From Thermodesulfobium acidiphilum (GTDB lineage Bacteria > Thermodesulfobiota > Thermodesulfobiia > Thermodesulfobiales > Thermodesulfobiaceae): a stretch of DNA of 64,000 bases. Both the position numbers and the translations under genes were made by a program. The stretch is taken from assembly GCF_003057965.1 (NCBI RefSeq), contig NZ_CP020921.1:394100-458099 (forward strand), written 5' to 3'. Positions 3,674 through 44,951 of this stretch are shown piece after piece (position 1 is the first letter of the stretch; the number at the start of each line of letters is the position of its first letter). A model generated the notes under the pieces. It did no database searches, was not told the DNA's origin, and saw only the letters and a program-made list of their open reading frames with translations.

Positions 3674-3707
3674 TTTAGAAGTAAAAAAATAATAATGAGG
3701 TGAAATT

Positions 3708-4997: not shown

Positions 4998-4998
4998 A

Positions 4999-6766: not shown

Positions 6767-6797
6767 GGAATTAAGAAAATGAAAGGAGATGTTCTGT

Positions 6798-8835: not shown

Positions 8836-8836
8836 A

Positions 8837-10042: not shown

Positions 10043-10089
10043 GGATTATTTAACTATGAAATAAAATATTTGGAAAGAGGGTAGATCCT

Positions 10090-11061: not shown

Positions 11062-11125
11062 AAAATTAAATTTTAATATTTTTTGATATTATTTATAATA
11101 TAAATTCTCTTTTAAGGAGTTTGAT

Positions 11126-11569: not shown

Positions 11570-11584
11570 ATTTTGGAGGCTGCC

Positions 11585-15522: not shown

Positions 15523-15543
15523 TTTTAACCTCCTAAATATAAT

Positions 15544-17754
15544 TTATATTTTAAAATTTCTAAGCCTAAGGGAGTTTGTAACTACAAAAACTGAGCTTGT
15601 AGCCATTGCTGCCTCGGCTATTACAGGATGAAGCATTCCAAGTGCTGCGAAGGGGATTGCAATAATGTTGTAGAAAAAAGCCCAAAACAGGTTTTGTTTA
15701 ATTTTTTTGAACGTTGCTATAGACAGTTTTATAGATTTAGCTACGCTTATAAGATCATCTGACATTAATGTAATGTTGCTTGCTTCTTTGGCTATATCAG
15801 TTCCAGTTCCTATGGATATTCCTACATCCGATTGTTTTAAAGACGGGGCGTCATTTATTCCATCTCCAACCATTGCCACAACATGGCCTTTCTCTTGAAG
15901 TCTTTTGATGTGTGCTATTTTGTCTTGAGGCAATAGGTTAGCAAAATATTCATCAATGCCAACTTGACCTGCAACATATCTTGCAGTTTCTTCGTTGTCA
16001 CCTGTGAGCATTATTGTTTTTATGCCCATCTTTTTGATTTGATCAATTGCTTCTCTTGCATTCTCTTTTATCTTAAAAGACAAAGCCATAATTCCCAGTA
16101 AACCCTTTTCATCTTCATATGCTATTGCCAGAGTTTTTCCTTCAAATTTTGACTTATCAATGTCTTTTATCCCTGCAATTTTTTCAATAAATTTTGGACT
16201 CCCTACGATGATCTTCTTGTTATTTAAATAGCCTTCTACTCCTAAACCTGGAACTACCTTTACGCTTTGAAAGTCTATTTTCGAAATGTTGTTGTCTTTT
16301 GCAAATTTATTAATTGCAATGCCGATAGGATGTTCGCTATAACTCTCAAGGGAGGCAACAATCTTTATAAATTCCTCTCTATCAATGTTTGACACAATAT
16401 CAGTAATATAGAGTTCTTTGTCTGTAATTGTCCCTGTTTTGTCAAATACTACTATATCTATATCCTTTGCTCTTTCCAAGGCTTCACCTGATCTAATTAG
16501 TATTCCTTTAGATGCTCCTAATCCTAATCCTACCATTAGTGCAGTTGGAGTAGCGAGTCCTAGTGCACAGGGACAGGCTATTACAAGCGTTGCGATTGAA
16601 GCATATAAGGCAGCTGAAATTGTGTTGAGATTAGGATTTACCCAGGGAAGAAAATTCTTTACCCAGAAATTTAATTTGTGTAAATCTGATGGGAACAAGA
16701 TCCAGGCTATAAATGTTAGAATAGCAATAATTATAATCGATGGAACGAAAATTGAAATAACCCTATCAGCAAATGCTTGTACAGGAACTTTAGTGCTCTG
16801 AGCGTCTTCTACTAATTTTGAAATTTTTGATAGGACTGTACTTTCTCCTATTTGTGTAACTCTGACTTTTATTGTGCCAAGTTGATTTATGGTGCCACCA
16901 ATTACTTTATCATTAATTGATTTGGTGACTGGTAGACTTTCTCCAGTTATCATTGACTCGTCTACTGATGTGGTACCCTCAATTATTACTGAATCTGTTG
17001 GAATTTGCTCAGATGGTTTTACCAAAAGAATATCTGAAACCTTCACAAAGTCTATATCTACTGTTTCTATGGAACCGTCTTGTTTTACCAGATTAGCTTT
17101 CTTGGGGCTAAGGTTTAGTAGCTTTTTTATCTCTTCCGATGCTCTCCCCTTTGCTTTGTTTTCCAGGTATTGTCCTATAAGATAAAAGCTGGTGATCATA
17201 GCTCCTACTCCAGAATAATCAGCTATTTTTTGACCAAGCAAATTTAATACTCCTGTTAAATACGAAGACGTTACTCCGAAAAATATTAAAACGTCCATAT
17301 TGGTATTTTTGTGAATCAATGCTTTTATTGCGCTTTTTATAGGATCTATACCTATTATGAAAATCACCGGGAAAGATAGAATAAGGTTTATTAGAATGTG
17401 ATATTTGAATTCAATATTAAAAAACATGTGTAAAAACATAATAAAGCTAAGAGGGATTGTAATAGCCCAGGCATATATCATCTTTAATTTAGCTTTTTTT
17501 ACCTTTTCCAAAAACTCATCGGACTCGTCTCTTTTATTAGCTTTTTCATAGAAGGCTTTGTATCCAGCTTTTTCTACGGCTTCAAAAACATCTTTTTCAT
17601 TAAAATTTTGTGGATCAAATGTTATCAAAGCCTTTTCGCTGGCAAGATTTACTACTGCGCTTTTGACGCCTTTGACTTTCTTAAGAGCCTTTTCCACGTT
17701 CATTGCACAAGAGGCGCAACTCATTCCCTCTATCTTTAAGATTAACTTCTCCAT
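15544..17754 (-). CDS. copA: Cu(I)-exporting P1B-type ATPase
   Basis: GMSCASC, TGES, IACPCALGLATP, DKTGT, SEHP, GDGIND, YN motif. Confidence 0.95.
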   Translation of the reverse strand: MEKLILKIEGMSCASCAMNVEKALKKVKGVKSAVVNLASEKALITFDPQNFNEKDVFEAVEKAGYKAFYEKANKRDESDEFLEKVKKAKLKMIYAWAITIPLSFIMFLHMFFNIEFKYHILINLILSFPVIFIIGIDPIKSAIKALIHKNTNMDVLIFFGVTSSYLTGVLNLLGQKIADYSGVGAMITSFYLIGQYLENKAKGRASEEIKKLLNLSPKKANLVKQDGSIETVDIDFVKVSDILLVKPSEQIPTDSVIIEGTTSVDESMITGESLPVTKSINDKVIGGTINQLGTIKVRVTQIGESTVLSKISKLVEDAQSTKVPVQAFADRVISIFVPSIIIIAILTFIAWILFPSDLHKLNFWVKNFLPWVNPNLNTISAALYASIATLVIACPCALGLATPTALMVGLGLGASKGILIRSGEALERAKDIDIVVFDKTGTITDKELYITDIVSNIDREEFIKIVASLESYSEHPIGIAINKFAKDNNISKIDFQSVKVVPGLGVEGYLNNKKIIVGSPKFIEKIAGIKDIDKSKFEGKTLAIAYEDEKGLLGIMALSFKIKENAREAIDQIKKMGIKTIMLTGDNEETARYVAGQVGIDEYFANLLPQDKIAHIKRLQEKGHVVAMVGDGINDAPSLKQSDVGISIGTGTDIAKEASNITLMSDDLISVAKSIKLSIATFKKIKQNLFWAFFYNIIAIPFAALGMLHPVIAEAAMATSSVFVVTNSLRLRNFKI

Positions 17755-19876: not shown

Positions 19877-20594
19877 CCTTGAAACGTATTATGAGATTTT
19901 TGGAGCAGGGACCGATTGTCTGATTTTGCACGGTGGCAGTGAAAACATTAGTACGATGCATAATCTGGCAGGTAGACTGTCTGAAAAGAATTATAAGATA
20001 TATTTGCCTGAACGAAGGGGACATGGCAGAAGCCTGGATACAGGCGATGAGTTTTCTTATGAACAGTTTGCATCAGACACATATCAGTTTATAAAAGCCT
20101 TTAAGCTGGAAGGGTGTTATGCAGTAGGTTATAGCGATGGGGCGATAATTCTTCTGCTTTTGTCGATAGAGAATCCAACACTTTTCAAGAAGATCGCTTT
20201 GTTGGGGGGACAATATCACTATGAGGGTCTTGAACCATATTTTGTAAAAGCTTTAAAGACAGATAACGTTTTAAAACTTTTTGAAAAAGAGAGAATAGAA
20301 TATGAAAGGATAAATAAATACGGCGTAAGTTTCGAAAAATTCCTGAAAAAAATAATTTTGCTGTGGCTGACATCTCCGAAAATTGATTATACAGAGCTCA
20401 AAAAGATAACCACTCCTACTTTGATAATTAGCGCTGACAGAGACATTATAAAGCTTGAACACACTATTTCTATGTTTAGGGCGATTGAAAGATCACATCT
20501 TGCAATTATACCCAATTCTAATCACAATTTCCCAATTTCTAGACCTAATTTTACAGCTAGTTTGATTTTGAACTTTTTTAACTCAAAGCCATGA
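19854..20594 (+). CDS. Alpha/beta hydrolase
   Basis: LHGG, RGHGRS, GYSDGA nucleophile elbow, C-terminal His; GTG 19854 after AAGGAG. Confidence 0.88.
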   Translation: MPSIKINNLETYYEIFGAGTDCLILHGGSENISTMHNLAGRLSEKNYKIYLPERRGHGRSLDTGDEFSYEQFASDTYQFIKAFKLEGCYAVGYSDGAIILLLLSIENPTLFKKIALLGGQYHYEGLEPYFVKALKTDNVLKLFEKERIEYERINKYGVSFEKFLKKIILLWLTSPKIDYTELKKITTPTLIISADRDIIKLEHTISMFRAIERSHLAIIPNSNHNFPISRPNFTASLILNFFNSKP

Positions 20595-22894
20595 AAATTA
20601 AAGTATGTCCTTTTCAGATTCTCGTATCAAAGGAAAACAGGAAGCCTTCAATATGTATAAATTGTTTAGATGAAAATGGCGAAAGGATAAAATTGTTTGA
20701 TGATAGTTTCAGACCAAGTTTTTACGTGCTTGTCGAAGAGAACAGTGAAAGGATAGAGTCTGTTATTAACTCTTCTCTTAATGAGGGAGTTAAGGAATTT
20801 AAAATAGAAAACAAGATATATATTGGTGAGAATAAGAGGTTTTATAGGATATATTTTGATTTCAATGAAGATAAGGACGTCCAAAGTGCTAAATTTTTTA
20901 AAAAATTTAGAGAGTTTATTTTATTTCATCACGATCTGAGGCCAACAGTTCAGTATATCTTAGAAAAGAACATAACCTTTTGCGCTTTCAATGAGATAGA
21001 AGTAAATAAATTTTCAGATGGTTATAGGGTAGAGGGTGATTTTTCTTTATATAGCTACGATTATCCTGACTTTAAATCTATGTCCTTTTACTTCTTGACA
21101 GATAGCAAGGTGTTAAATCCTGATCCAGAAATAAACAAAGTTACTTATATATCAATATTTTCCAATGAGGGGCCGATGACTTTTGAGGGGGACGAAAGGG
21201 GTATCTTTGAGAGTTTTTTAACATTTATCAAACGTTACAAGCCGAGCATCATATACGTTTTTAACGTCGGTCAAGATGATTTTGACTTCATGGCGAAAAG
21301 GGCAAAAAGCTTAGGCCTTGATCTAAAATTTGAGGATAGTCTTCCTGTTAAAGGCCAATTTGGTTCCATTCAAATAGATTCGATAGTAATATTCGATCTC
21401 TTCCAATATGCCCAGACTTTGTATGACCTTAAGCAAAAGGAATTAAAAAAGACTTTAGAGTTTTTGAATATAGCTTTTCAAAAGGATTACATTCTAGACC
21501 AGATCGAACTTGTAAAAGCTATTGAGTTTTTAGATGCTGAAAGGTTGTCAAAGCATTGTAAATATTCTGCCAAATCTATCTTTGATCTTGGAGAGCTAAC
21601 CCATCAGTTATACTTTTCTCTATCTCAGATTACGTTTATGCCGCTTGATGTTGTGATATTTGCTCCTACCGGGTTTAGGGTTGAAGGGCTTTTTATGAAA
21701 AAGAGTTATTTACAAAATATGATAATATTGCCGAAAAAACGACACGTTAGCGATTCTTATGAAGGGGGTATAGTTCTAAAGACATCTCCTGGAGTGTATA
21801 AGAACGTAGTAGTTTTAGACTTTAAGAGCATGCTTCCGTCTATTATGATAAGATATAACATTTCATTTGATACATTTGTTGAGGAAAGCTGTGATGAAGA
21901 ATGCTTTAAGTCTCCAAAGAATAAATATAAGTTTAGAAAGAGACCGGACGGATTCTATAAAAAAATCCTTCAAGAATTAATTTCTGAAAGGGATAGAATA
22001 AAAAAAAGTATGGATAATTTTCCAAAGTCTTCGAAAGAGTATATCTTCCTGAACGCTAAACAAAAGACCTTGAAGATAATTACAAATGCCTGTTATGGAT
22101 ATGCAGGGTGGCAAAGTGCCAGGTGGTTTAAGAAAGAAATTGCTGAGGCCACTTCCGAGTGGGGCAGGAAGACTCTAACAGATGCAATAGAACTGGCTGT
22201 AAGTTTAGGTCTTGAGATTATATATGGCGACACAGATAGCCTTTTTATAAAAGAAAGTGAAAATATAAGCAAATTTCTTTCAGAATTGAAACTTAGGGGC
22301 GAAATTATTAAAGTTGACGAAGTCTTTAGATCGGTTGTTTTTACTGAGGCTAAGAAAAAATATGCTGGAATTAACGATTCCGGGGAGCTAGTCCTGGTTG
22401 GTTTTGAAGGGGTCCACGGTGATGTTCCAGAAATTGTTAGGATTGTTCAGGAAAAAATTTTAAGATCTATTTTGAATTTTAAAGGATTTGATGCTGCTAT
22501 AGAAATTTTACAGGACGAAATAGAGAAGCTAAGAAATAATGAATATCCACTTTTGTCCTTTGTAATTTATAGGGCTGTTAATAAGAATATAAGTTCATAT
22601 GAAGTAAGAGCACCTCACGTTGAGGCTGCTAAAAAATACATTCAGATGGGATTCAAGTTGAGATCGGATAACATTATAGGATATGTGATTACAAAAGGTG
22701 CTGGAGCAATTAACTCAAGGGCTATGCCTTATATCTATTTGAAAGTCGAGGATGTAGATGTTGATTACTATATAAAAAATTTACTTGTTCCTTCTGTTTC
22801 AAGAATTCTATATAGCATTTTTGGAAAAAAAGTTGTCTTTAAAAACGACAAATTGATTGTGGATAATGATAAAAAGGATTATCTTTTCAATTGA
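20591..22894 (+). CDS. polB: Family B DNA polymerase, archaeal-like
   Basis: YEGGIV, DFKSMLPS, KIITNACYGY, YGDTDSLF, KKKYAG, YEVRAPHV. Confidence 0.9.
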   Translation: MKIKVCPFQILVSKENRKPSICINCLDENGERIKLFDDSFRPSFYVLVEENSERIESVINSSLNEGVKEFKIENKIYIGENKRFYRIYFDFNEDKDVQSAKFFKKFREFILFHHDLRPTVQYILEKNITFCAFNEIEVNKFSDGYRVEGDFSLYSYDYPDFKSMSFYFLTDSKVLNPDPEINKVTYISIFSNEGPMTFEGDERGIFESFLTFIKRYKPSIIYVFNVGQDDFDFMAKRAKSLGLDLKFEDSLPVKGQFGSIQIDSIVIFDLFQYAQTLYDLKQKELKKTLEFLNIAFQKDYILDQIELVKAIEFLDAERLSKHCKYSAKSIFDLGELTHQLYFSLSQITFMPLDVVIFAPTGFRVEGLFMKKSYLQNMIILPKKRHVSDSYEGGIVLKTSPGVYKNVVVLDFKSMLPSIMIRYNISFDTFVEESCDEECFKSPKNKYKFRKRPDGFYKKILQELISERDRIKKSMDNFPKSSKEYIFLNAKQKTLKIITNACYGYAGWQSARWFKKEIAEATSEWGRKTLTDAIELAVSLGLEIIYGDTDSLFIKESENISKFLSELKLRGEIIKVDEVFRSVVFTEAKKKYAGINDSGELVLVGFEGVHGDVPEIVRIVQEKILRSILNFKGFDAAIEILQDEIEKLRNNEYPLLSFVIYRAVNKNISSYEVRAPHVEAAKKYIQMGFKLRSDNIIGYVITKGAGAINSRAMPYIYLKVEDVDVDYYIKNLLVPSVSRILYSIFGKKVVFKNDKLIVDNDKKDYLFN

Positions 22895-34325: not shown

Positions 34326-34337
34326 TATTTCTGAAAA

Positions 34338-34370
34338 GCCCCGTCTCCAACAATTTTTGGAGACGGGGGC
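34338..34370. terminator. GC-rich hairpin terminating the hdr-dsrE operon
   Basis: CCCCGTCTCCAA..TTGGAGACGGGG with a T run on the minus strand. Confidence 0.8.
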
Positions 34371-34383
34371 AGGGTTTAAAAGA

Positions 34384-34746
34384 TTAATAATTTAATACTG
34401 AGTTAGCCTCTAATATCTCTTTGATGGCTTTTCCGGCTTTTGTGAGCTCACAGCCATCAACTATCATTTCCTTTGTGATGCCTCTTTCTTCACAACAAGG
34501 AATGCATAGGAATATCTTTCCACCATTTGAAAGAAAATTCTCTACATGTTTTTTTATCGGATCATGTCCAGGTGCCTTTATGTGTTCGTAAACTCCCTTT
34601 GTTACTGTGTATACACCGTTTGCCTGCAAACAAACTATAACCTCAGCATCCATTGCAAGGGCTGCATTAGCCATTACGTATGCAAGGGTTGCCTTTTCAG
34701 GGTCTTCTGGTCCGATTGTCGACATAACTACAACTTTTTCGCTCAA
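34384..34746 (-). CDS. DsrE/DsrF-like sulfur relay protein (copy 3)
   Basis: GPEDPEKAT..ANAALAMD..LQANGV..GGKIFLCIPCC. Confidence 0.85.
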   Translation of the reverse strand: MSEKVVVMSTIGPEDPEKATLAYVMANAALAMDAEVIVCLQANGVYTVTKGVYEHIKAPGHDPIKKHVENFLSNGGKIFLCIPCCEERGITKEMIVDGCELTKAGKAIKEILEANSVLNY

Positions 34747-34795
34747 ATTAGAATTTCCTCCTTAGAATTTAGTTATAAAAATACACTTTAAAGAT

Positions 34796-35158
34796 TTAAT
34801 AGTTTAATGTGGTTTTGGCTTCCAGTATAGCTTTCATAGCCTTGCCAGACTTGGCCATTTCGCAGCCTTCCAGTATTTGGTCTTGAGAAATATCTCTTTC
34901 CTGACAACAGGGGATACAAACATAAAATTTTCCACCATTTGAAAGAAAATTCTCTACATGTTTTTTTATCGGATCATGTCCAGGTGCCTTTATGTGTTCG
35001 TAAACTCCCTTTGTTACTGTGTAAACGCCATTTGATTGGAGAACCATCAATACCTCAGCATCCATTGCAAGGGCTGCATTAGCCATTACGTATGCAAGGG
35101 CTGCCTTTTCTGGGTTTTCTGGCCCAGAAGATAAGGTAATTACAAGCTTTTCACTCAT
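34796..35158 (-). CDS. DsrE/DsrF-like sulfur relay protein (copy 2)
   Basis: Close paralog of 34384-34746; CIPCC. Confidence 0.85.
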   Translation of the reverse strand: MSEKLVITLSSGPENPEKAALAYVMANAALAMDAEVLMVLQSNGVYTVTKGVYEHIKAPGHDPIKKHVENFLSNGGKFYVCIPCCQERDISQDQILEGCEMAKSGKAMKAILEAKTTLNY

Positions 35159-35191
35159 TTTTTTCCTCCGATTAAGTTTTTAGATTGATAA

Positions 35192-35554
35192 TTAATAAAA
35201 CATTACTAAGTCTGATTCGGCCATGTCTAACATTGCTCTTCCGGCTCCAACTATTTGAGCATTTCTAACAAGATCTTTCTCAGTTATGTTTCTGGCTTTA
35301 CTTGCGCAAACGCATAAATAGAATTTACCGCCCTGTTCTATAAAGTTCTTTACGTAAATTTCCAGAGGATCATAATCTTTATACGTAATTCTCTCAAACA
35401 TTCCGTTAACTGCTGTAAAAACTCCTCCGCTTTGAAGCCACATAGTAACTTCATAGTCCATTGCAAAAGCAGCGTTTGCCATAATAAAGGCACCTATAAC
35501 TTTTTCAGGGTTATCAGGACCTGATGTGAGTGCAATAAAAGCCTTCTTTGCCAT
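35192..35554 (-). CDS. DsrE/DsrF-like sulfur relay protein (copy 1)
   Basis: GPDNPEK..ANAAFAMD..GGKFYLCVCA. Confidence 0.85.
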   Translation of the reverse strand: MAKKAFIALTSGPDNPEKVIGAFIMANAAFAMDYEVTMWLQSGGVFTAVNGMFERITYKDYDPLEIYVKNFIEQGGKFYLCVCASKARNITEKDLVRNAQIVGAGRAMLDMAESDLVMFY

Positions 35555-35573
35555 TCTCTCCTCCTAACACTAT

Positions 35574-36554
35574 TTATGAATTTTGTAAGTATGATTTAAC
35601 TAAGATTTCGGAAAGATCCAGGAAACTATCCTTTGAAGGAGAACTTTCTTTTAAGTTTAATAAGCAAATTGGACACATTGTAGTTACTATGTTTGAACAG
35701 GATAATAAATCGTTTGCTCTTTTTGAGGCAATTTCTTTTGCTTTTTTTGGGAAGAGTGACTCAATTGGACCACCGCAACAGTGAGTAAGCTTTCTTGAAA
35801 GTTCTGGTTCTACATAATTTATTCCGGCATTTTTTAAAAGAACTCTTGGCTCTTCTATTATCTCTTCATATCTTGCCAGGACACAGGAATCATGAATAGC
35901 GACTGTCATATCTAGCTTATTTTGAGGTTTGATTTTATTTTCATATAATACTTCAATATAATTTTTTACTTCGTAATTAAATTCTGGCAAAATCTTTTTA
36001 TAAACCCTTCTAAGCATGTGTGTAGTGTGTGGATCGACTGTAATAATATTTTTAACGTTATTGTCTTTAAGAATTTTGTTTAATGTCTTTGCTTGATTTA
36101 TTAGCGGTTCGTCTATACCGTTGTCGTACAAAAGAGTACCAACATAAAGTTCATCCTCATATAAGTATCCTGCCTCTACACCGGCGTACTTTAAAAGCTT
36201 ATAGATATTTTGCAGACATCTTTCTGACCTTTCTACCTCATTTCTCTCAGGTTTTGCAGCGTATTTGGACATTGAAGAAAGGTTGACAAACTTATTAACG
36301 ATTCTGCCTACTGGAGCTAGTTTCATAAGAGGGGAATCTTCGAGATTTTCGTAAAGAGTGGTTGCTGATTTTGTGATGGGCATAAGCTGGTACATGTGTC
36401 CCGTATAAATTATTGTTTCTGTACCTCTTTTTATGTCTAAATCTTTTGCCCATGATGTAAGGCTTTTTTCTGAAACGCTAAATACTGTTTTTCTCTTTTC
36501 AAAATTATCGTTTAATATTCCTAAAACCGCTCCCACTTTGCTCATTTTTTTCAC
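35574..36554 (-). CDS. CCG-domain Fe-S protein (HdrB/HdrD-like)
   Basis: HDSC..CCGG..CPIC intact; first CCG repeat degenerate (ELYVG, TVDPH). Confidence 0.85.
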   Translation of the reverse strand: MKKMSKVGAVLGILNDNFEKRKTVFSVSEKSLTSWAKDLDIKRGTETIIYTGHMYQLMPITKSATTLYENLEDSPLMKLAPVGRIVNKFVNLSSMSKYAAKPERNEVERSERCLQNIYKLLKYAGVEAGYLYEDELYVGTLLYDNGIDEPLINQAKTLNKILKDNNVKNIITVDPHTTHMLRRVYKKILPEFNYEVKNYIEVLYENKIKPQNKLDMTVAIHDSCVLARYEEIIEEPRVLLKNAGINYVEPELSRKLTHCCGGPIESLFPKKAKEIASKRANDLLSCSNIVTTMCPICLLNLKESSPSKDSFLDLSEILVKSYLQNS

Positions 36555-36853
36555 ACTCCAAGCTTGCTTTTGGCAAGATAATTTCTTATAAGCCTTATAT
36601 TTTCTGTAATATTAACTTCATGTGGGCATTGCTCTTCACACATTCTACACAAAAGGCATGAAAATACCTGATCGGTGCTCTCAAGAATTTTTTCTTCTTC
36701 ACCTAAGAGAACATATCTAAAGAGTTTTCTGGGTAAAATATCAAATCCTACTGGACACAGTGCTGAGCAAGTCCCACAATTAAAACATGCTGAAGCGTTG
36801 AAATCTTCGCTTATTTTAATCTTATCTATCAATCCAGAATTGACTTTTATCAT
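36551..36853 (-). CDS. HdrC-like 2x[4Fe-4S] protein
   Basis: CFNCGTCSALCP and CLLCRMCEEQCP; start at ATG 36853. Confidence 0.88.
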   Translation of the reverse strand: MIKVNSGLIDKIKISEDFNASACFNCGTCSALCPVGFDILPRKLFRYVLLGEEEKILESTDQVFSCLLCRMCEEQCPHEVNITENIRLIRNYLAKSKLGV

Positions 36854-36854
36854 C

Positions 36855-37097
36855 TTATTTCTCCTTGAGAGCGTATTTATAGTAATCATCTCGTCTCTTT
36901 TTTGGAAGTTCTTCGACAAGATTGTATCTGCGCATTGCCATTAGATGCATAGTAACCTCATAAGTTGGAATATTTAATTCCTTTGAAATTTCTGGTATTG
37001 TCTTTGGTTCACTTTTGAGCAAAGAAGCTATTTTTTCGTGGAAATACATCTCATTTTTTATAACGTGTAAAGGCGGCTTAATAAATTTTTTTATCAT
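36855..37097 (-). CDS. Small winged-helix hypothetical protein in the hdr cluster
   Basis: PKTIPEISKELNIPTYEVTMHLMAMRRYNLV; tightly coupled to both neighbours. Confidence 0.7.
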   Translation of the reverse strand: MIKKFIKPPLHVIKNEMYFHEKIASLLKSEPKTIPEISKELNIPTYEVTMHLMAMRRYNLVEELPKKRRDDYYKYALKEK

Positions 37098-38818
37098 TCT
37101 TTTGCCTCCAAGAGCATAGAATTTATCATAGAATTTATTTGAACATGAGTGTAACCAAGAACTTCCAGCGCATCTTCAGGGCAATCAGGTACACAGCCGC
37201 CACATCCTTTGCAAATTGCAGGGTTTATGTTTGCAATTATCTTGTCGTTTTTATTTATAAAGGATATTGCTTCGTAAGGGCATGAATTTTCACATAATTT
37301 GCAACCTGTACACTTTTCTTCTATTACGTGTGCAACAGTGGGTTCAATGTCTACATAGCCTTTTATAAGAAGAGATGCTGTTTTTGATGCTGCAGCCATT
37401 GAACTAGCTACGCTTTCTGAAATATTTTTTGGACCTTGTGACGTTCCTGCAATGAATATGCCGTCTATTACAGTTTCTACAGGCCTTAGTTTTGGATGAA
37501 TTTCGTTATAAAACTTATCTTTACCGATAGGAGTTTTTAAGATATCATTTAGCTCTGTATTTTCATTTGCTACCATACCGTTAACTAATACTAGCAGATC
37601 ACAGGGGATTAAGATATCTTCTTTGGCCAGCAATCTATCTTTTACTATAATTTTTATTCTTTCGCCTTTTAGACTAATATCTGGGGGGTTTTCTTCCTCG
37701 TATTTGAAGTATAAAGCTCCACGTCTGAGATTTTCTTCGTAATATTCCTCGTATTTTCCGTATGTTCTTATATCTCTATAAATATGATATTGCTTTAAAT
37801 TGTTATCGATATCAAATGCTAAAAGAGAAGCATAGTTAACAGCGCTGCAACAATATCTGGAACAGTATTTATTGCCGTTTTCTTTATTACTTTCTCGGGA
37901 ACCTACACAATAAATGTAGGCTATTTCTCTAATTCTTTGACCATTAAAGATTAGTTCACCTTTTTTAGTATTATTTGATAATAACTTCTTAAAATCTACC
38001 AAAGTTATTACATTGGGGTGCCCATAGCCAAACTCATTAGGTTCTGGAATATAGGGCTTGAATCCTGTTGCTAAAATTATTGAACCAACGCTTAAAGTTA
38101 GTTTTTCATTTCCAGACATTATATCGCATTCAAAATTTCCTACGCTGCCTTGTTTTTTCAATAATTTTGCGTTCGTATAAACTTTTATATTGTTTCTTCC
38201 CTTAATTTCTTTTTCAAGTTCTTCTATTAGTTCAGAACTATTTTTATGTTCAGGAAAGACTATACCTATGTCCTTTAAATTGCCACCTATTTTGGATTCT
38301 TTTTCTACTACGTGAGCAAAGATCCCCATATCGGATAATGCTAAAGCGCACCTTAAACCTGATATGCCTCCTCCTATTATTAAAGCCTGATTTACAGTGT
38401 TTACTCTTAATGGAGTGAGTGGAACAGAATTTCTAGTTTTTGCAATGCCAGCTCTTACTAAATCAATTGCTTTAGAAGTGGCTGCTTCTTTGTTGTGAGT
38501 ATGTGCCCATGAACACTGCTCTCTGATATTTACCTGAGTATACTGGTAGGGATTAAGTCCTGCCCTTTGTGCCATATTTTGAAAGGTCTTCAAATGAAGT
38601 TTTGGGGAGCAAGAAGCAATTACAATTCCGTCTAACTTCTTTTCTTTTATTGCATTTATCATTTCTGTTTGAGCGCTGTCAGAACATGTAAACATATTGG
38701 TCTTTGCATATACTACGCCTTCATCGTTTGCAACTGCATCCCTTACTCTTTCTACGTCTACATAGTCAGATATGTTTCCACCGCAATAACATATGAAAAC
38801 GCCAATTCTATCGCTCAT
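37094..38818 (-). CDS. hdrA: Heterodisulfide reductase subunit A family protein
   Basis: GVFICYCG, CSPKLH, NIREQCSW, GGGISG, CVGSR..YCSRYCC, HPKLRP, C-terminal ferredoxin. Confidence 0.92.
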   Translation of the reverse strand: MSDRIGVFICYCGGNISDYVDVERVRDAVANDEGVVYAKTNMFTCSDSAQTEMINAIKEKKLDGIVIASCSPKLHLKTFQNMAQRAGLNPYQYTQVNIREQCSWAHTHNKEAATSKAIDLVRAGIAKTRNSVPLTPLRVNTVNQALIIGGGISGLRCALALSDMGIFAHVVEKESKIGGNLKDIGIVFPEHKNSSELIEELEKEIKGRNNIKVYTNAKLLKKQGSVGNFECDIMSGNEKLTLSVGSIILATGFKPYIPEPNEFGYGHPNVITLVDFKKLLSNNTKKGELIFNGQRIREIAYIYCVGSRESNKENGNKYCSRYCCSAVNYASLLAFDIDNNLKQYHIYRDIRTYGKYEEYYEENLRRGALYFKYEEENPPDISLKGERIKIIVKDRLLAKEDILIPCDLLVLVNGMVANENTELNDILKTPIGKDKFYNEIHPKLRPVETVIDGIFIAGTSQGPKNISESVASSMAAASKTASLLIKGYVDIEPTVAHVIEEKCTGCKLCENSCPYEAISFINKNDKIIANINPAICKGCGGCVPDCPEDALEVLGYTHVQINSMINSMLLEAKE

Positions 38819-41400
38819 AGCCCCCTCCTCATCTTTGTAATGTATCCTGCTGCTTGAGCTGCAGCAGCTCCAGCGTGTACAACAGAATCGGGGATATCTT
38901 TTATAGAACTAGAAGTGCCAGCTACAAATATTCCTTCTATTGAGGTTTTTGCTGGCTCTATGTTTTCTTCTACTTCTCTTACGAACATATGATTGTCCGC
39001 ATCCAGTTTTATATCTTTGAAAGACTTAAATATAGATGTGTTCGACAGTAGGCCAACTGATAGTATTACCATATCGTGACTGGCAACCTTTATCTGCCCA
39101 TCTTCTTCTATATCTTCGTAAAATAGATTTAAATTGTTTTCTTCATCTTCTTCAATTCTTGCTACCTTCCCTTTTACGAATCTTATTCCCATTTCTTTGG
39201 CCTGGTGGTAAAACTCTTCATATCCTTTGCCGAATGCCCTTATATCAATGTAATAAATAGTCAAATCGGCGGTAGGTAGGGCTCCCATTATAAGTTGCGC
39301 CTGTTTTAGAGAATACATACAGCAAACTCTTGAACATATATTATTGTTTACCTTTCTGTCTCGTGAACCTACACACAATATCATTGCAATATTTGAGGGT
39401 ACTTTACCGTCAGATGGTCTTATTACAGCATTATATGGCCTGGTTGGTGCGAGTATTCTGTCCATTTGCATTGCGTCGATGACATTTGGAAATCTGCCAA
39501 AGCCGAATATTTCTTTTTTGCTGGCGTTAAACAAATTGAATCCTGTAGAGACAATTACAGTATCCACTTCTATTTCGTATCTTATATCTCTGATAGAAAA
39601 ATCTATTGCATTAGCCGGACAAATGTTTACACATTGGTGACATTCGCTACAACCACCACAATCCAGACAGCCTGTAGCATATTTCTTAACTTCTTCTTCT
39701 GAAATGGTTTGTTCTATTTCTTCAAAATTGAGTTCTTTTGTTTTGAGATGTGGCTCAAATTTTATATGTTTTGGAAAGTCTGAGTTATAACGTTCTTTTA
39801 TTTCATTAGGTTTTACGGCAGGAAGTCTGTTGTCAAATTTTTCTGAACTAAAATCTAAATTGTTTAAAAATAGATCAAGATAAAAAGCTGCCTTTTTTGC
39901 ACTGGAAATAGCCTTAAGAATATTTGAATGTCCGTGTACACTGTCACCACAACTAAATGCCCACGGAATTTGGGTCTGATAAAATTCGTTAACTTTTAGT
40001 TCGGATATATTCGAATCAGACTCGTCAAAAATTATTTGCTCAGGTTTTGGGTCCATTGCATAAACAATAATATCTGCTTTATCTATCTCATCTAATTTGG
40101 AATTAAGAATCAATCTGGCTCCCTCGTTTGTAGCATCGTCGATCTCTTTTTTTGTAGCACTCATACTTACCCTGTCCTTTTCAAAGTGTATTGAAACGTT
40201 TGCTTTATACCTTAGTGCCACTCTGGCACAGTGCATAGCAATGTTATTTCCACCTATTACAACAACGTTTTTAGAATTTAGGGTGGGGGGGATATCTTTG
40301 TTCTGCAAGAATTTAATTGCGTCTATGACATTTTTTTGTTTTAAGAATTCTGGTAAATCCTTTTCATTATAGCTGGTTCCAGTTGACAACAATACTGCGT
40401 CAAATCCATTTTCTTTTAAAGATTTTAAAGAAGAGATTTTGGTGTTAAGCTTTACTTCAATATTATTGAACGATGTTATTTCTTCAATATCTCTATCTAA
40501 TAAATTCTTTGGAAGCAAATAATCTGGAATTAATCTAAGTTTGCCTCCCAGTTTGTCTGATGATTCGAAAATAGTTACTCTGTAACCCTTTTTAGCTAGA
40601 TAATATGCTGCGCTGAGTCCAGATGGACCAGAGCCTATAATTGCAATTTTCTTATCTAATAGATTTTTTGGTTCTATTTTTTGTGGTATAGGGAAATTTT
40701 TAAAGTGTTTGTCAGCTATATATCTCTTTATGTTTCTAATAGGGATAGAACCTTCTAATTGGTTTCTGGTGCACCTTTTTTCGCAGGGAGCGGAGCATAT
40801 TCTACTAAGAGTTGAAACTAGAGGTGAGTCTTCAAGATGTAAACGATATGCCTCTTCAAATTTTCCAGATCTTGAGAGTGAAACCAGTCCGTGAGCTTTT
40901 ATGCCAATAGGGCACACAAAGGTACAGGGGGATGTACCAAATCTCTCTATTACGGCTTTTTTAGGAACGGCTTGTGGAAATGCAATATATGCCGCTCTTC
41001 TGGGAACCAGGTCACAATTGAACTGGTCAAGCAAGGGAACAGTGCAAGCAAGCTCACACTGTCCGCATCCAGTGCATTTAGCAGGATCTACAAAAGACGC
41101 TTTTTTAAGAATTTTAGCAGTAAACGAATCCTCTTTTTTCTTTATTTCCTCTACCTCACTATAATTTAACACGGTAATATTATTGTGAGCTGCTGTTGCA
41201 GCCATTTTAGGTGTAGATATACAGCTCGAACAATCAAGAGTGGGAAATACTTTACTAAGTAGTATCATTTTTCCGCCAATACTGGACTCTTTTTCTACAA
41301 GAAGCACTTTGAACCCCATATCACCAAGCAATATGGAAGATTCCATCCCAGCAATTCCGCCACCTATTACTAATGCATCAAATTTTTTAAAGTCGCTCAT
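38815..41400 (-). CDS. HdrL-type large HdrA with an inserted GltD/NfnB-like module
   Basis: HdrA N-terminus KVFPTLDCSSC; insert SPCTFVCP..RICSAPCEKRC..GSGPSG; HdrA C-terminus CVGSRD..CSRVCC..DIRAFGKG. Confidence 0.88.
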   Translation of the reverse strand: MSDFKKFDALVIGGGIAGMESSILLGDMGFKVLLVEKESSIGGKMILLSKVFPTLDCSSCISTPKMAATAAHNNITVLNYSEVEEIKKKEDSFTAKILKKASFVDPAKCTGCGQCELACTVPLLDQFNCDLVPRRAAYIAFPQAVPKKAVIERFGTSPCTFVCPIGIKAHGLVSLSRSGKFEEAYRLHLEDSPLVSTLSRICSAPCEKRCTRNQLEGSIPIRNIKRYIADKHFKNFPIPQKIEPKNLLDKKIAIIGSGPSGLSAAYYLAKKGYRVTIFESSDKLGGKLRLIPDYLLPKNLLDRDIEEITSFNNIEVKLNTKISSLKSLKENGFDAVLLSTGTSYNEKDLPEFLKQKNVIDAIKFLQNKDIPPTLNSKNVVVIGGNNIAMHCARVALRYKANVSIHFEKDRVSMSATKKEIDDATNEGARLILNSKLDEIDKADIIVYAMDPKPEQIIFDESDSNISELKVNEFYQTQIPWAFSCGDSVHGHSNILKAISSAKKAAFYLDLFLNNLDFSSEKFDNRLPAVKPNEIKERYNSDFPKHIKFEPHLKTKELNFEEIEQTISEEEVKKYATGCLDCGGCSECHQCVNICPANAIDFSIRDIRYEIEVDTVIVSTGFNLFNASKKEIFGFGRFPNVIDAMQMDRILAPTRPYNAVIRPSDGKVPSNIAMILCVGSRDRKVNNNICSRVCCMYSLKQAQLIMGALPTADLTIYYIDIRAFGKGYEEFYHQAKEMGIRFVKGKVARIEEDEENNLNLFYEDIEEDGQIKVASHDMVILSVGLLSNTSIFKSFKDIKLDADNHMFVREVEENIEPAKTSIEGIFVAGTSSSIKDIPDSVVHAGAAAAQAAGYITKMRRGL

Positions 41401-41415
41401 GCCTACTCCTTATAG

Positions 41416-41811
41416 TTAATTATTTAACTCACTTAATGCTTTATGAAACTTTTTAATATGTGATACAAATGACTCTGCACAAACTGAACATATTGCTGCC
41501 ATTTTTACTCTTCTCGGATCCAGATTGTTTGCTGTAAGGAGTTCTTGTGATTTTTCTACGACTTTTGCAGTTCTATCTGTGCAGTCAGTTAAATAAGGAC
41601 AGTCTGTTCCATCGGCAGCTATAAATACTCCATCAAAGCCATTTTTTATAGCATTTAAAATCCACTTTGGGCTTATACCACTAGAGCAAGGTACTGTTAT
41701 AACTTTAACCGATTCTGGATAGTCCATATGAGATGCCCCTGCAAGGTCAATACCCGGATCTGAGATGTTATTTGTTGAAAAAACCAATATTTTTGGATTA
41801 TTGGTAGACAT
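41416..41811 (-). CDS. mvhD: MvhD/FlpD-family Fe-S subunit (atypical Cys pattern)
   Basis: DLAG..YPESVKVITVPCSSG..GFDGVFIA..DCPY. Confidence 0.85.
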   Translation of the reverse strand: MSTNNPKILVFSTNNISDPGIDLAGASHMDYPESVKVITVPCSSGISPKWILNAIKNGFDGVFIAADGTDCPYLTDCTDRTAKVVEKSQELLTANNLDPRRVKMAAICSVCAESFVSHIKKFHKALSELNN

Positions 41812-41812
41812 T

Positions 41813-42064
41813 TTATTTTCCTCTTTTTACATAAAGTTTCCAATATCCAGCTTCTTCAACAGTTCCTAAAAATTCGTGTCCAACTTTTTCTGCCCATAAT
41901 GGGAGGTCTTCGTTTGTTCCTTCGTCAGAGGATAGAACTTCCATTATCCCGCCAATAGGTATCGAGACGATTTCTCTTTTGGCTGCGAGCAATGGGCCAG
42001 GACAGGCACTCCCTCTTGCATCTACTGTTTTGTCTACTTTCAAATTTTTCAAGTCTAAGCTCAT
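41813..42064 (-). CDS. tusA: TusA-family sulfurtransferase
   Basis: DARGSACPGP..DLPLWAEKVGH. Confidence 0.92.
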   Translation of the reverse strand: MSLDLKNLKVDKTVDARGSACPGPLLAAKREIVSIPIGGIMEVLSSDEGTNEDLPLWAEKVGHEFLGTVEEAGYWKLYVKRGK

Positions 42065-42080
42065 GACATCCTCCTAATAT

Positions 42081-42449
42081 TTATTTTTTTATTTTAAAGC
42101 AAAGAAAATTGCTTTCCAAACTCATTTCTTTTGCAAAATTGCCCTTTTTTTTCATTGTTTCATAAAGAATTTGTCTTATAAGATTACAGGCTTCACCTAA
42201 CCTTTTGTCTGAGAGTGAGTAGTAAATTGTTTTGCCCTCTTTTCTGGCTTCTACTAAATTGTGTGATCTAAGAATAGCTAGATGCTGGCTAACAGTTGAT
42301 GGTCTTGCGCCTATTGTTTTAGCAATTTCTGTTACGTTTGCCTCCCCTTCAGCAAGCATTGCTATTATCATAAGCCTTTTCGAACTGGAAAGGCTTTTGC
42401 AAAGCTCTGCATGGGCATCAAAGAGTTGCAGCAAATTAATTATAATCAC
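42081..42449 (-). CDS. ArsR/SmtB-family transcriptional regulator
   Basis: KRLMII..VSQHLAILR..RKEGKTIYYSL. Confidence 0.9.
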   Translation of the reverse strand: MIIINLLQLFDAHAELCKSLSSSKRLMIIAMLAEGEANVTEIAKTIGARPSTVSQHLAILRSHNLVEARKEGKTIYYSLSDKRLGEACNLIRQILYETMKKKGNFAKEMSLESNFLCFKIKK

Positions 42450-42464
42450 CTCTTTTTATACATA

Positions 42465-42513
42465 TATTCGAAAATTCGAAAATAAGTATATATAATTTTT
42501 TCAATTCTGTCAA
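42465..42513 (-). promoter_or_regulatory. Promoter of the arsR-hdr operon with a candidate ArsR operator
   Basis: Minus-strand TTGACA (42508-42513), 17-bp spacer, TATACT (42485-42490); dyad TTCGAA-aa-TTCGAA just downstream. Confidence 0.7.
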
Positions 42514-42804
42514 TAAGGCAATTTTATTCGTTTTTGTTTTCTAAGTTATCTTTATAATTTATTAATTTTTTTCTATATTTTTTTCTGAAAAGGATAATAT
42601 AAATAGTTTATATGACAAAAACATTTGACATATTCATTTTAAATAACTATACTTTTGGAGTTGTTTAAAAGTTGATTTTAATTTAAATTTAATGAAATTA
42701 ATTTATTTTTTTTAATGAGTTTTAAAAAGGGGTAAAGGGCAAGGATCTTTTCAGGAGGTACTAAGGTTATGATTTTATTTTTTAAGGTGATTAAAGGCTT
42801 TAAG

Positions 42805-42881
42805 TGGCGTGCCCGACAGGATTCGAACCTGTGACCTTTGGATTCGTAGTCCAACGCTCTATCCAACTGAGCTACGGGCAC
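42805..42881 (-). tRNA. tRNA-Arg(ACG)
   Basis: GTGCCCGTAGCTCAGTTGGATAGAGCGTTGGACTACGAATCCAAAGGTCACAGGTTCGAATCCTGTCGGGCACGCCA; cloverleaf, ACG anticodon, encoded CCA. Confidence 0.97.
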
Positions 42882-44030: not shown

Positions 44031-44951
44031 TTGAGATATGATGTAATTATTTTGGGAGCAGGACCTGCTGGTTTATCTGCTGCTGTTTATTTAGCAAGAG
44101 CTAATGTTTCGTCTCTTGTAATAGGTTTGCCAGGCGGATCAAGGGCTTCGTGGGCCCATAACATTGAGAACTACCTTGGATTTCCTGAAGGAATTTCGGG
44201 TAAAGAATTTAAGGAGAGATCGGTAGCTCAAGCAAAAAAATTTGGCGCAGTAATTTTAGAAGAAGAAGTTATTGCAGCTAACTTTTCTGAAAATGGCGGT
44301 TACTACGTTGAAACAAATAAAGAAAATCGCTTTGAGGCTAATTTTTTGATTCTAGCACTGGGATTGAATGTAAAACCTTCTGGCGTAAAAAATGAAGTAG
44401 AATATGTTGGGAAGGGAGTCTCTTATTGCAGCACCTGTGATGGGTTTTTTTACAAAAATAGGCCTGTTGTGGTAATAGGTAATAAAGATCTGGCTGCAAG
44501 AGAAACTCTTGATCTGGTTGAATTTGCTTCGAAGATAAATTTGATTTCGCATGCAAAGAGTTTTGAAATCTCTGAAAACTTTCTGAATAAGTTAAAACAA
44601 AATAATGTTGAATTAACGACAGGAAAGGTAATTGAAGTGCTTGGTGATGGAGAAAAGGTTACTGGAGTTTTGCTGGATAACGAGAGCAAGATATCTGCGG
44701 ACGGCGTTTTCTTTGCTTTGGGAGATATGGGGCCGCTTGATATAGCCAGATTTTTAGGGTTAGAAATTGACGAAAAAACAAAATCAATTGTAGTAGATAG
44801 GAAAATGAGAACTAATATTCCTGGAATATATGCTGCGGGAGATTGTACTGGAGAACCTTATCAGATTTCCACTGCTGTAGGAGAGGGTGCAATTGCTGCC
44901 CTTGAAATTATACATGAACTAAGAAACAGAAAGGACAGAAAAGATGATTAA
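44031..44951 (+). CDS. trxB: Thioredoxin reductase family
   Basis: GAGPAG, ENYLGF, VSYCSTCDG, AAGD. Confidence 0.88.
   Translation: MRYDVIILGAGPAGLSAAVYLARANVSSLVIGLPGGSRASWAHNIENYLGFPEGISGKEFKERSVAQAKKFGAVILEEEVIAANFSENGGYYVETNKENRFEANFLILALGLNVKPSGVKNEVEYVGKGVSYCSTCDGFFYKNRPVVVIGNKDLAARETLDLVEFASKINLISHAKSFEISENFLNKLKQNNVELTTGKVIEVLGDGEKVTGVLLDNESKISADGVFFALGDMGPLDIARFLGLEIDEKTKSIVVDRKMRTNIPGIYAAGDCTGEPYQISTAVGEGAIAALEIIHELRNRKDRKDD

Follow-up and report, generated by a model that had tools for sequence, protein, structure and literature searches.

What is the function of an operon in which subunits of heterodisulfide reductase (Hdr), a type of flavoenzyme that serves as the textbook example of flavin-based electron bifurcation, are encoded together with TusA and DsrE proteins, which are hubs of cytoplasmic sulfur trafficking? 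This question is raised by a locus of Thermodesulfobium acidiphilum that lies within a 64,000-nucleotide (nt) stretch of contig NZ_CP020921.1 (hereafter the window, to whose positions the coordinates refer). On the minus strand, from 42449 to 34384, eleven co-oriented and closely spaced open reading frames (ORFs) encode, in 5' to 3' order, an ArsR-family regulator, TusA, MvhD, HdrL, HdrA, a winged-helix protein, an HdrC-like subunit, an HdrB-like protein with a CCG domain, and three DsrE proteins. The operon is a member of a widespread, biochemically unstudied Hdr variant. Judged from its sequence, it may encode a soluble NAD(P)H-linked reductase of the sulfane sulfur carried by TusA and DsrE, a reading to which we give slightly less than an even chance.

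The operon and its seven-gene core

The layout, which an initial annotation of the window had singled out as self-contained, turns out on a search for gene order to be no local oddity. Scanning one genome per species with a profile of the CCG protein gave 424 candidate stretches, 408 of which encode a relative, and the best 80 of these 408 loci, on which the locus counts below are based, were screened by tblastn with the eleven operon proteins. In 66 of the 80 loci, a single strand encodes TusA, MvhD, HdrL, HdrA, the winged-helix protein, HdrC and the CCG protein collinearly over no more than 8 kb. Seven of the 14 remaining loci are cut by a contig start (L024, L028, L033, L038, L049, L058 and L070). 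The winged-helix match went undetected by tblastn in L021 and L050, HdrL is longer and split in L025, the gene order is rearranged in L034, and L096 holds the complete gene set plus a second HdrL upstream of the module. The order is truly different in L056 and L071, which encode a short HdrA-like protein, HdrC, the CCG protein, a full HdrA and MvhD; tblastn found no TusA around the related CCG protein of these two loci, and their arrangement may be a sister module.

Carriers of the core, named here by the titles of their records and with the taxon labels of metagenome-assembled genomes (MAGs) as deposited, include Thermoplasmata archaea, Zixibacteria, Ignavibacteria, Chloroflexota/Dehalococcoidia, Verrucomicrobiota, Lentisphaerae, Acidimicrobiia (Actinomycetota), Acidobacteriota, Nitrospirales, Alphaproteobacteria (Hyphomicrobiales) and Thiobacillaceae. 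Cultured carriers of the Desulfotomaculum group are Desulfotruncus, Desulfofundulus, Desulfoscipio, Desulfallas and Desulfotomaculum copahuensis. One Acidimicrobiia MAG contains two full seven-gene copies on different contigs (L065 and L088). Across the 65 full loci outside the genus, median identity to the operon proteins is 65% for TusA, 64.5% for MvhD, 48.7% for HdrL, 52.6% for HdrA, 42.6% for the winged-helix protein, 52% for HdrC and 45.6% for the CCG protein. Because the seven-gene order has been kept over many phyla, including Thermoplasmata archaea, the unit appears to be under selection. Relatives of the CCG protein itself are more numerous: a word-indexed search returned 925 at E ≤ 1e-5 among 2350 candidates scored, and in a library clustered at 50% the number of representatives matched by its profile rises from 207 at E ≤ 1e-30 through 2569 at E ≤ 1e-10 to 5619 at E ≤ 0.001. 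NCBI labels the closest homologues, with 85–88% identity, as Thermodesulfobium sp. Two features set the genus Thermodesulfobium apart, namely the triplication of DsrE and an NAD(P)H motif in HdrL that diverges from the consensus.

That the eleven genes form a single operon is confirmed, as the ORFs lie at the coordinates given by the initial annotation, with a promoter at one end and a terminator at the other. The sigma-70-like promoter (42485..42513, minus strand) consists of TTGACA, a 17-nt spacer and TATACT, with 11 of 12 consensus matches; its −35 and −10 hexamers are kept in four Thermodesulfobium species, in which the DNA upstream of the promoter has diverged. Taken as a whole, the promoter scan gave no enrichment (37 sites against 32.6 ± 6.2 in shuffles). 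The intrinsic terminator (34333..34370, minus strand) is a G+C-rich hairpin of about 12 pairs (34370-34338) followed by a U-tract, with a folding energy of −23.9 kcal/mol (z = −5.13) that none of 200 shuffles equalled in stability. Intergenic gaps across the operon range from −4 to +49 nt, with 4-nt overlaps at the HdrL/HdrA, HdrA/winged-helix and HdrC/CCG junctions. The gaps measure 16 nt between ArsR and TusA, 1 nt between TusA and MvhD, 15 nt between MvhD and HdrL, and 19, 33 and 49 nt on the way from the CCG gene through the first and second to the third DsrE gene. The HdrC-like protein most likely starts at the ATG at 36853, which gives a product of 100 amino acids and places its start 1 nt past the winged-helix stop, whereas the start codons of ArsR and of the CCG protein are uncertain by a few codons.

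Gene sets of similar composition have been described in sulfate reducers. HdrL was defined in Desulfobacterium autotrophicum as an HdrA with a glutamate-synthase-type NADH domain, and locus VIII of strain HRM2 of this bacterium contains tandem hdrL and hdrA with hdrC- and hdrB-like genes (PMC2702500). The HdrABC/HdrL proteins of Syntrophobacter fumaroxidans (Sfum_0819-0824) were detected only with sulfate and have been proposed to reduce DsrC (PMC5947623), and HdrA/HdrL located next to fdhAB have been discussed for Desulfurivibrio dismutans (PMC12142623). In the passages that describe such loci, HdrL stands, as in T. acidiphilum, beside MvhD, a second HdrA and HdrC/HdrB-like subunits in a soluble system with no hydrogenase (PMC2702500, PMC5947623). 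On the other hand, these passages mention no TusA, DsrE, winged-helix subunit or ArsR (PMC2702500, PMC5947623, PMC12142623), and the S. fumaroxidans locus, as described there, also differs by an extra iron-sulfur (Fe-S) protein and another gene order. The likeness to the published HdrL loci rests on their descriptions rather than on sequence orthology. To our knowledge, none of these published loci has been characterised biochemically. The claim of the initial annotation that the layout matches no known system thus holds with regard to sHdr, Flx-Hdr and Mvh-Hdr, but is to be narrowed in view of the HdrL precedents outlined in print (PMC2702500, PMC5947623). A full-text literature search, with supplementary files outside its scope, found no description of TusA-MvhD-HdrL-HdrA-wHTH-HdrC-CCG (wHTH, the winged-helix protein) as a unit, although earlier reviews may classify such loci.

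Subunits of the Hdr complex compared with known systems

Each of the domain assignments made initially is supported by Pfam and NCBIfam, and the presence of two different HdrA proteins, one of which carries a GltD-like insert, is borne out by alignment to the methanogen complex 5ODC and by matches to NfnB and GltD. HdrA (574 amino acids, 37094..38818), in which Pfam recognises Pyr_redox_2 and a C-terminal Fer4 dicluster, aligns with 5ODC_A at E = 5.9e-114, residues 3-235 corresponding to 4-236 and residues 238-569 to 315-650. The N-terminal Fe-S, flavin adenine dinucleotide (FAD) and C-terminal 2x[4Fe-4S] ferredoxin domains are present in this protein, and the segment around 237-314 of 5ODC_A, which is the inserted-ferredoxin domain, is missing. 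HdrL (861 amino acids, 38815..41400; Pyr_redox_2 118.7 bits, Fer4_20 53.6 bits) aligns with the HdrA of 5ODC at E = 1.3e-102 through residues 9-153 (146-290 in HdrA) and 579-853 (288-564), and is without both the N-terminal domain and the C-terminal ferredoxin domain of HdrA. Between the two cysteine motifs of its inserted-ferredoxin domain, HdrL contains an insert of about 425 residues (about 154-578) of the GltD/NfnB type, with FAD, NAD(P)H and 2x[4Fe-4S] sites. Residues 157-430 match NfnA, NfnB, GltD and related chains, and the insert also matches dihydropyrimidine dehydrogenase-type chains and the N-terminal parts of large formate-dehydrogenase chains. The consensus of this insert in 72 orthologues includes a GltD-type FAD motif and the NAD(P)H motif GGGNvAiD...YRRsR.eMPA.

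The Fe-S cysteine sets of HdrL and HdrA are conserved in their orthologues, and the FAD and [4Fe-4S] sites that characterise the methanogen-type HdrA flavoprotein are found in both proteins. The NCBIfam models of methanogen HdrA score 490.5 for HdrA and 456.5 for HdrL against a cut-off of 1100, and by sequence the two proteins are outside any curated equivalog. From their alignments, they look like complementary halves of a heterodimer that would replace the HdrA homodimer of methanogens. In the work on 5ODC, the inserted ferredoxin domain of methanogen HdrA reportedly leads to ferredoxin; if the domain does lead there, the location of the NAD(P)H module inside it suggests that in HdrL the pyridine nucleotide sits on the ferredoxin branch of the methanogen enzyme.

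Two smaller subunits are predicted to handle electron transfer. The MvhD-like [2Fe-2S] electron-transfer subunit (131 amino acids, 41416..41811) matches FlpD with 104.8 bits over a cut-off of 22.3 and has five cysteines conserved in 71-72 of 72 orthologues. The HdrC-like 2x[4Fe-4S] ferredoxin subunit (36551..36853) contains Fer4_17 and Fer4_8 and falls below the cut-off of TIGR03290 (56.9 against 160); its eight cysteines are present in 76 of 76 orthologues.

The predicted catalytic subunit of the HdrB/HdrD fold (35574..36554) had been called HdrB-like, which is accurate for its fold and its C-terminal motif but not for the number of its cluster sites, because it has a single CCG site of the DsrK/HdrD type instead of the two of HdrB. 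Pfam detects one CCG domain only (34.5 against a cut-off of 20.6; residues 218-302), whose motif C224, C259, C260, C294 and C297 is present without exception in the 81 orthologues. In the N-terminal half of the protein the fold is maintained, no cysteine is conserved, and the conserved residues are of other kinds, such as VDPHTT. In a profile search, the C-terminal half aligns with the C-terminal CCG domain of HdrB, and the single-CCG relatives of NCBIfam, DsrK, TmcB and HmcF, match over the CCG motif with scores far below their cut-offs (DsrK 25.1 against 400). In library forms of about 400-440 amino acids the CCG profile starts to align around residue 90-150, and one protein (P0101, 431 amino acids) combines Fer4 and CCG Pfam domains; we read these longer forms as putative HdrC-CCG fusions with an HdrD/DsrK-like architecture. 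The AlphaFold model of the operon protein (predicted local distance difference test, pLDDT, 88.9) was matched by Foldseek to EtfD of M. smegmatis (9OJN, query TM-score TMq 0.69), in its HdrD-like part, and to LutA, and to the HdrB of three methanogen complexes (including 8RVU_B and 5ODC_B) at a TMq of about 0.5.

These fold matches bear on the possibility that the complex is a general NAD(P)H/ferredoxin redox-balancing Hdr with a non-sulfur acceptor, such as a quinone-like or organic compound, in which TusA would serve cofactor assembly or regulation. The best folds, EtfD and LutA, belong to proteins that do not act on thiols, and TusA proteins are generally known to have cofactor-biosynthetic roles. 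We nevertheless regard this function as improbable, because TusA is fixed in 66 of the 80 loci, is translationally adjacent to MvhD and has an invariant cysteine, DsrE carriers are linked in 47 of the 80 loci, and the regulators belong to thiol-sensing families.

The remaining component of the core is a cysteine-free winged-helix protein of 80 amino acids (36855..37097). Pfam matches to it are sub-threshold only (PF21476, 25.9 against 33; TrmB, 23.6 against 25.6), and up to 24 of 46 orthologues have a sub-threshold match to the single family PF21476. The AlphaFold model (pLDDT 85.3) has fold matches to Zalpha, CzrA/SmtB and ZitR. The alignment of the orthologues contains no column with cysteine in at least 30% of the sequences and is marked by the conserved signature PKTIPEIA...W.M.MRRYG...YY.Y. 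Because it is translationally coupled among structural genes in the 66 full loci, the protein is probably a structural or adaptor subunit and not a second regulator. A role like that of DsrD was considered and rejected, with no DsrD family match in the 46 orthologues and none among the listed fold matches.

Placed beside the MvhAGD-HdrABC and Fdh/Elp-Hdr complexes of methanogens (5ODC, 7BKB, 8RVU), the operon has in common with them the HdrA core, MvhD, the HdrC dicluster and the HdrB fold. It differs in having no hydrogenase or Fdh input, the NAD(P)H input being built into HdrL, in its HdrL/HdrA pair in place of the HdrA homodimer, in one CCG motif in place of two, in protein sulfur carriers in place of CoM-S-S-CoB, and in the extra winged-helix subunit. 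Unlike FlxABCD-HdrABC, it has no Flx-type genes and would bind NAD(P)H through the GltD-type insert of HdrL, and the aprBA-adjacent arrangement of QmoABC and QmoAB-HdrCB, with a QmoC that is membrane-bound or HdrC-like, is not seen in it. Its ferredoxin-type dicluster followed by one complete CCG motif resembles DsrK/HdrD-type proteins (DsrMKJOP, Tmc, Hmc), whereas the two parts are separate proteins here and the system is soluble instead of membrane-linked.

Regarding sulfur chemistry, a further comparison is with the sHdr system (hdrC1B1A-hyp-hdrC2B2, LbpA, TusA, DsrE3), which is linked genetically to transferases of the TusA and DsrE families and stands under ArsR-type repressors that respond to sulfane sulfur (PMC11094781, PMC12423496, PMC10451225). 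The operon likewise contains linked TusA and DsrE-family sulfur transferases. In contrast to sHdr, it encodes one HdrC-like protein, one single-motif CCG protein and two HdrA-type proteins, and neither an HdrL with an NAD(P)H module nor MvhD is part of sHdr. A search limited to the eleven operon products found no lipoate-binding domain (LbpA) among them. An oxidative function modelled on sHdr, in which carrier-bound sulfane sulfur would be oxidised and electrons would leave as NAD(P)H through HdrL, agrees with the logic of TusA and DsrE feeding an Hdr-like complex, as this is presented for sHdr (PMC11094781). The module is also found in MAGs labelled Thiobacillaceae and Hyphomicrobiales, and the succession of HdrA, a small protein, HdrC and an HdrB-like protein is reminiscent of hdrA-hyp-hdrC2-hdrB2 in shdr clusters. 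Such a function is quite unlikely, however, given that the operon has no gene for a lipoate-binding protein and a single HdrC and a single CCG protein where sHdr has a pair of each, that one cluster site would have to serve a four-electron oxidation to sulfite, and that many carriers belong, judged by record titles, to anaerobic lineages.

Sulfur carriers, regulator and genomic surroundings

The TusA-family sulfur carrier of the operon (83 amino acids, 41813..42064; Pfam 74.5 bits, cut-off 28.6) has a CPGP motif whose reactive Cys21 is invariant in 71 of 71 orthologues. D15, A16, R17, G18, P22, G23 and P24 are invariant as well, the last residues with C21 making up a motif of the CPxP type. 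The three DsrE paralogues, of 120 amino acids each, exceed the Pfam cut-off of 22.7 with 54.5 bits for paralogue 1 (35192..35554; active-site column Cys81, motif LCVCAS), 66.7 for paralogue 2 (34796..35158; motif VCIPCC) and 65.2 for paralogue 3 (34384..34746). Paralogue 3 duplicates paralogue 2 in tandem, with 74% identity between the two, whose counterpart for paralogues 1 and 2 is 42%; the closest solved relative of paralogue 2 is 3MC3 (E = 2.5e-7). Three of the four Thermodesulfobium species have three DsrE copies and one has two, and orthologues of paralogue 1 are present in two of the three other genomes of the genus (G001 and G003) and not in G002.

Clustering of the flanking ORFs combined with tblastn identified a DsrE-family gene beside the module in the 47 loci mentioned above. 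Three subtypes occur near the module and share one active-site cysteine column: a protein of about 120 amino acids with CxPC encoded just downstream of the CCG gene, which is the T. acidiphilum type and occurs in 24 loci, a DrsE_2 protein (PF13686) of 155-190 amino acids, and a protein of about 119 amino acids encoded upstream of TusA. Compared with DsrEFH type I and TusBCD, the operon encodes three DsrE-type paralogues with the active-site cysteine and not distinct E, F and H proteins; the TusC/DsrF model scores 16.1 against a cut-off of 94. DsrEFH type II of cable bacteria is described, in the relevant part of the source, as lying beside yeeE and tusA, as escaping sequence annotation and as having a DsrE with Cys67 (PMC13293266). 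By this description the three DsrE genes are set apart from type II, which was rejected for them, as there is no yeeE here and all three are plain Pfam DsrE proteins. In 10 loci (including L035 and L046) a 273-amino-acid cytidylate-kinase-like protein (PF13189) is encoded on the same strand downstream of the module, about 0.5 kb past the DsrE gene, and in 10 loci a DUF2173 protein is encoded nearby.

The first gene of the operon encodes an ArsR/SmtB-family regulator of about 120 amino acids (42081..42449) with Cys17, Cys88 and Cys117. It scores 49.7 bits with HTH_5 (cut-off 22) and passes the metalloregulator subfamily model NF033788 (88.8 against 55), and it falls short of the BigR equivalog (62.8 against 155). 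Its closest solved relatives are SqrR (6O8K, E = 1.3e-16) and BigR (3PQJ, E = 5.7e-12), with which it has in common that an ArsR protein heads a sulfur-handling operon. SqrR senses through a cysteine pair in alpha-2 and alpha-5 (C41/C107). In the T. acidiphilum protein the alpha-2 position is Ala30, which rules out canonical sensing of the SqrR/BigR kind. Of 29 orthologues, 26 retain Cys88 and 18 retain Cys17, and several of those without Cys17 carry a vicinal Cys87-Cys88 pair. The initial description of a cysteine-containing, possibly persulfide-sensing ArsR is therefore retained for the conserved Cys88 with Cys17 or Cys87 and given up for the alpha-2 cysteine; a thiol-based switch with a geometry other than that of SqrR/BigR is plausible from the conservation pattern.

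A candidate ArsR operator is found in an imperfect palindrome at 42457..42490 (16-nt arms, 2-nt spacer, 88% complementary), which overlaps the −10 hexamer and the leader and whose core is kept in loci L005-L008 and L019; like the promoter, it is conserved in four Thermodesulfobium species. Regulators near the module vary: an ArsR gene lies upstream on the same strand in 28 of the 80 loci, a divergent CsoR-family gene in six, all of them in Bacillota of the Desulfotomaculum group, and a sigma-54 activator within 6 kb of the module in 16. Both the ArsR and the CsoR families include persulfide sensors.

The pass with the metalloregulator subfamily also fits detoxification of chalcogens or metalloids, in which Se or Te species on TusA/YedF-like carriers would be reduced under the control of a metalloregulator. 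Weak NCBIfam matches of TusA to the YedF models of selenium metabolism, of HdrL to YgfK (223.5 against 835), and to a dicluster family that occurs in the vicinity of genes for selenoproteins (157.5 against 530) point in the same direction. We consider this function very unlikely, as the selenium-related matches are all far below their cut-offs, the operon contains no transporter, efflux or arsenic genes, and the enrichment described below is with dsrA and not with metal-resistance genes.

Around the operon, a tRNA-Arg(ACG) gene (42805-42881) precedes the promoter by about 290 nt and is likewise on the minus strand; a 67-amino-acid ORF that overlaps it (42678-42881) is spurious, and an Rfam scan of the window detected this tRNA only. 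On the plus strand, about 1.5 kb upstream of the operon, lies the gene for a thioredoxin-reductase-like flavoprotein (44031-44951; 252.6 against a cut-off of 343), a possible thiol-redox neighbour. Elsewhere in the window, a plus-strand cluster (3020-12211) encodes transaldolase/fructose-6-phosphate aldolase, type III RubisCO (544 bits, cut-off 497), phosphoribulokinase, a split transketolase, GAPDH, PGK, FBPase, RpiB and Rpe, which fits a transaldolase variant of the Calvin cycle that is reportedly used by Thermodesulfobium. On the minus strand (14836-17754), a rusticyanin-like cupredoxin (105 bits, below 146.7), an unusual partner in a strict anaerobe, is encoded directly downstream of a CopA-type copper P-type ATPase. 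A family-B DNA polymerase of 767 amino acids (20591-22894, plus strand), here in the genome of a bacterium, scores 181 bits with TIGR00592 and about 169 bits with archaeal PolB models, in each case below cut-off.

Dissimilatory sulfur metabolism and the proposed reaction

The complete genome of T. acidiphilum, a single contig of 1.77 Mb, contains a dsrA of 541 bits, over the cut-off, with an adjoining dsrB-like gene. DsrC and a DsrK-like protein are encoded next to dsrAB, and the genome has two DsrK-like genes. In each of the four Thermodesulfobium species, the dsrA match (1324260-1325438 in the T. acidiphilum genome) contains a single TAA, which may be no more than the terminal stop codon. 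At about 1.29 Mb there is a separate, canonical-looking hdrA-hdrC-mvhD cluster, and a second locus, at about 1.55 Mb, combines a pair of HdrA-like genes with an HdrC-like one; we infer hdrB and mvhGA at the former from position and size, and a Qmo/Apr identity of the latter from sizes and BLAST matches only. The operon is an additional, fourth MvhD-linked system of the host, and its interpretation as a copy of Qmo or Mvh-Hdr was rejected because the host has separate putative loci for both.

Among 79 distinct carrier genomes, dsrA exceeds the curated cut-off in 36 (24/50 + 12/30), compared with 3 of 37 non-genus relative genomes used as controls, and five more carrier genomes have dsrA fragments or weaker matches. 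The association is strongest for the CxPC-type DsrE loci, 19 of 24 of which are in dsrA genomes, against 17 of 56 other loci. It raises the possibility that the complex is a soluble system for recycling DsrC, in which NAD(P)H would reduce DsrC in its trisulfide form, or a TusA/DsrE intermediate that originates from it, so that organisms with dsrAB would have a route in the cytoplasm alongside the membrane-bound DsrMK(JOP). Besides the dsrA enrichment, a single-CCG architecture like that of DsrK is in favour of this function, as is the published proposal, to the extent set out in the source, that HdrABC/HdrL reduces DsrC, these proteins being detected only with sulfate (PMC5947623). However, more than half of the carrier genomes show no dsrA, the host already has two DsrK-like genes, one of them directly beside dsrC and dsrAB, no dsrC is found within the operon, and the stress-type repressor at its head is more in keeping with inducible expression than with a role in central catabolism. 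We therefore judge DsrC recycling unlikely.

The reading that we prefer, an NAD(P)H-linked reductase of carrier sulfur, is built on three links. NAD(P)H is proposed as the donor because HdrL has a GltD-type module, carrier sulfur is proposed as the substrate because TusA is invariant and DsrE genes are neighbours, and a reductive direction is proposed because of the single cluster site, the lack of LbpA and the prevalence in anaerobes. In essence this reading preserves the initial suggestion of a complex that couples NAD(P)H or ferredoxin to protein-bound sulfane sulfur, for which the invariant TusA cysteine, the conserved Fe-S ligands, the dsrA enrichment and the regulator families provide partial support.

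In the proposed mechanism, the several subunits would make up a soluble iron-sulfur flavoenzyme of the heterodisulfide-reductase type, whose substrate would be the sulfane sulfur on Cys21 of TusA (a persulfide or possibly a thiosulfonate) and not a small heterodisulfide, with DsrE-family carriers feeding and buffering TusA. NAD(P)H would be oxidised at the GltD/NfnB-type module of HdrL, and electrons would pass through the two [4Fe-4S] clusters of the module and the flanking ferredoxin-type clusters to the flavins of HdrL and HdrA. The [2Fe-2S] cluster of MvhD and the C-terminal diclusters of HdrA would then convey them to the two clusters of HdrC, and the single non-cubane-type site of the CCG protein would cleave the S-S bond on the carrier, releasing H2S and reduced TusA. 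Ferredoxin, reduced concurrently by flavin-based bifurcation, is a possible second acceptor. ArsR would keep the operon repressed from the palindrome that spans the −10 region and would be released once Cys88 with Cys17 is modified by sulfane sulfur. The system would remove sulfane sulfur from the cytoplasm or put it to use, serving for detoxification or as an electron sink, and in organisms with dsrAB, such as T. acidiphilum, it may tie into dissimilatory sulfur metabolism.

Several observations weigh against this proposal and temper its strength. At its NAD(P)H site, the T. acidiphilum HdrL reads GGNNIAMH...HFEKDRVSMSA, with GGNN where the consensus of the family has GGGN, H where it has D, and HFEKDR where it has YRRsR, which makes nucleotide use less certain here than in the family; the protein may differ in nucleotide preference or have a weaker NAD(P)H site. 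With NAD(P)H as the donor, the couple of elemental sulfur (S0) and H2S is a thermodynamically weak partner for bifurcation. CCG domains occur also in enzymes without a thiol substrate, and the model of the operon protein matched EtfD and LutA ahead of HdrB. No DsrE gene was found next to the module in 33 of the 80 loci, the SqrR/BigR alpha-2 cysteine is replaced by Ala30 in ArsR, whose Cys17 is absent in 11 of 29 orthologues, and DsrK-like proteins are already encoded beside dsrC and dsrAB of the host. Regarding the dsrA association, the 37 controls are a small and non-random set with one genome per family, and the counts ignore kinship among genomes. Moreover, 43 of the 79 carrier genomes, for which MAG completeness is not given, have no dsrA over the cut-off, so the module is not restricted to Dsr organisms and its sulfur link is partial.

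We tentatively propose, with a degree of doubt that exceeds our confidence, that the module represents a distinct and widespread Hdr class, namely a protein-persulfide reductase that would be driven by NAD(P)H, served by TusA/DsrE carriers and possibly bifurcating to ferredoxin within the HdrL/HdrA heterodimer. The module offers a testable candidate for the role of HdrL complexes in sulfate reducers, for the chemistry of a one-cluster HdrB, and for the handling of sulfane sulfur in strict anaerobes, which cannot use persulfide dioxygenase. Because several carriers are in culture (Thermodesulfobium, Desulfotruncus, Desulfofundulus, Desulfoscipio and Desulfallas), such tests are feasible. An operon in which Hdr and TusA/DsrE are joined by an NAD(P)H entry of its own would be a new enzyme between the sulfur cycle and redox balance. 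If it is a protein-persulfide reductase, it would provide many bacterial and archaeal anaerobes with a missing cytoplasmic route for zero-valent sulfur and, in organisms with dsrAB, would connect the reduction or disproportionation of sulfur with the pool of pyridine nucleotides.

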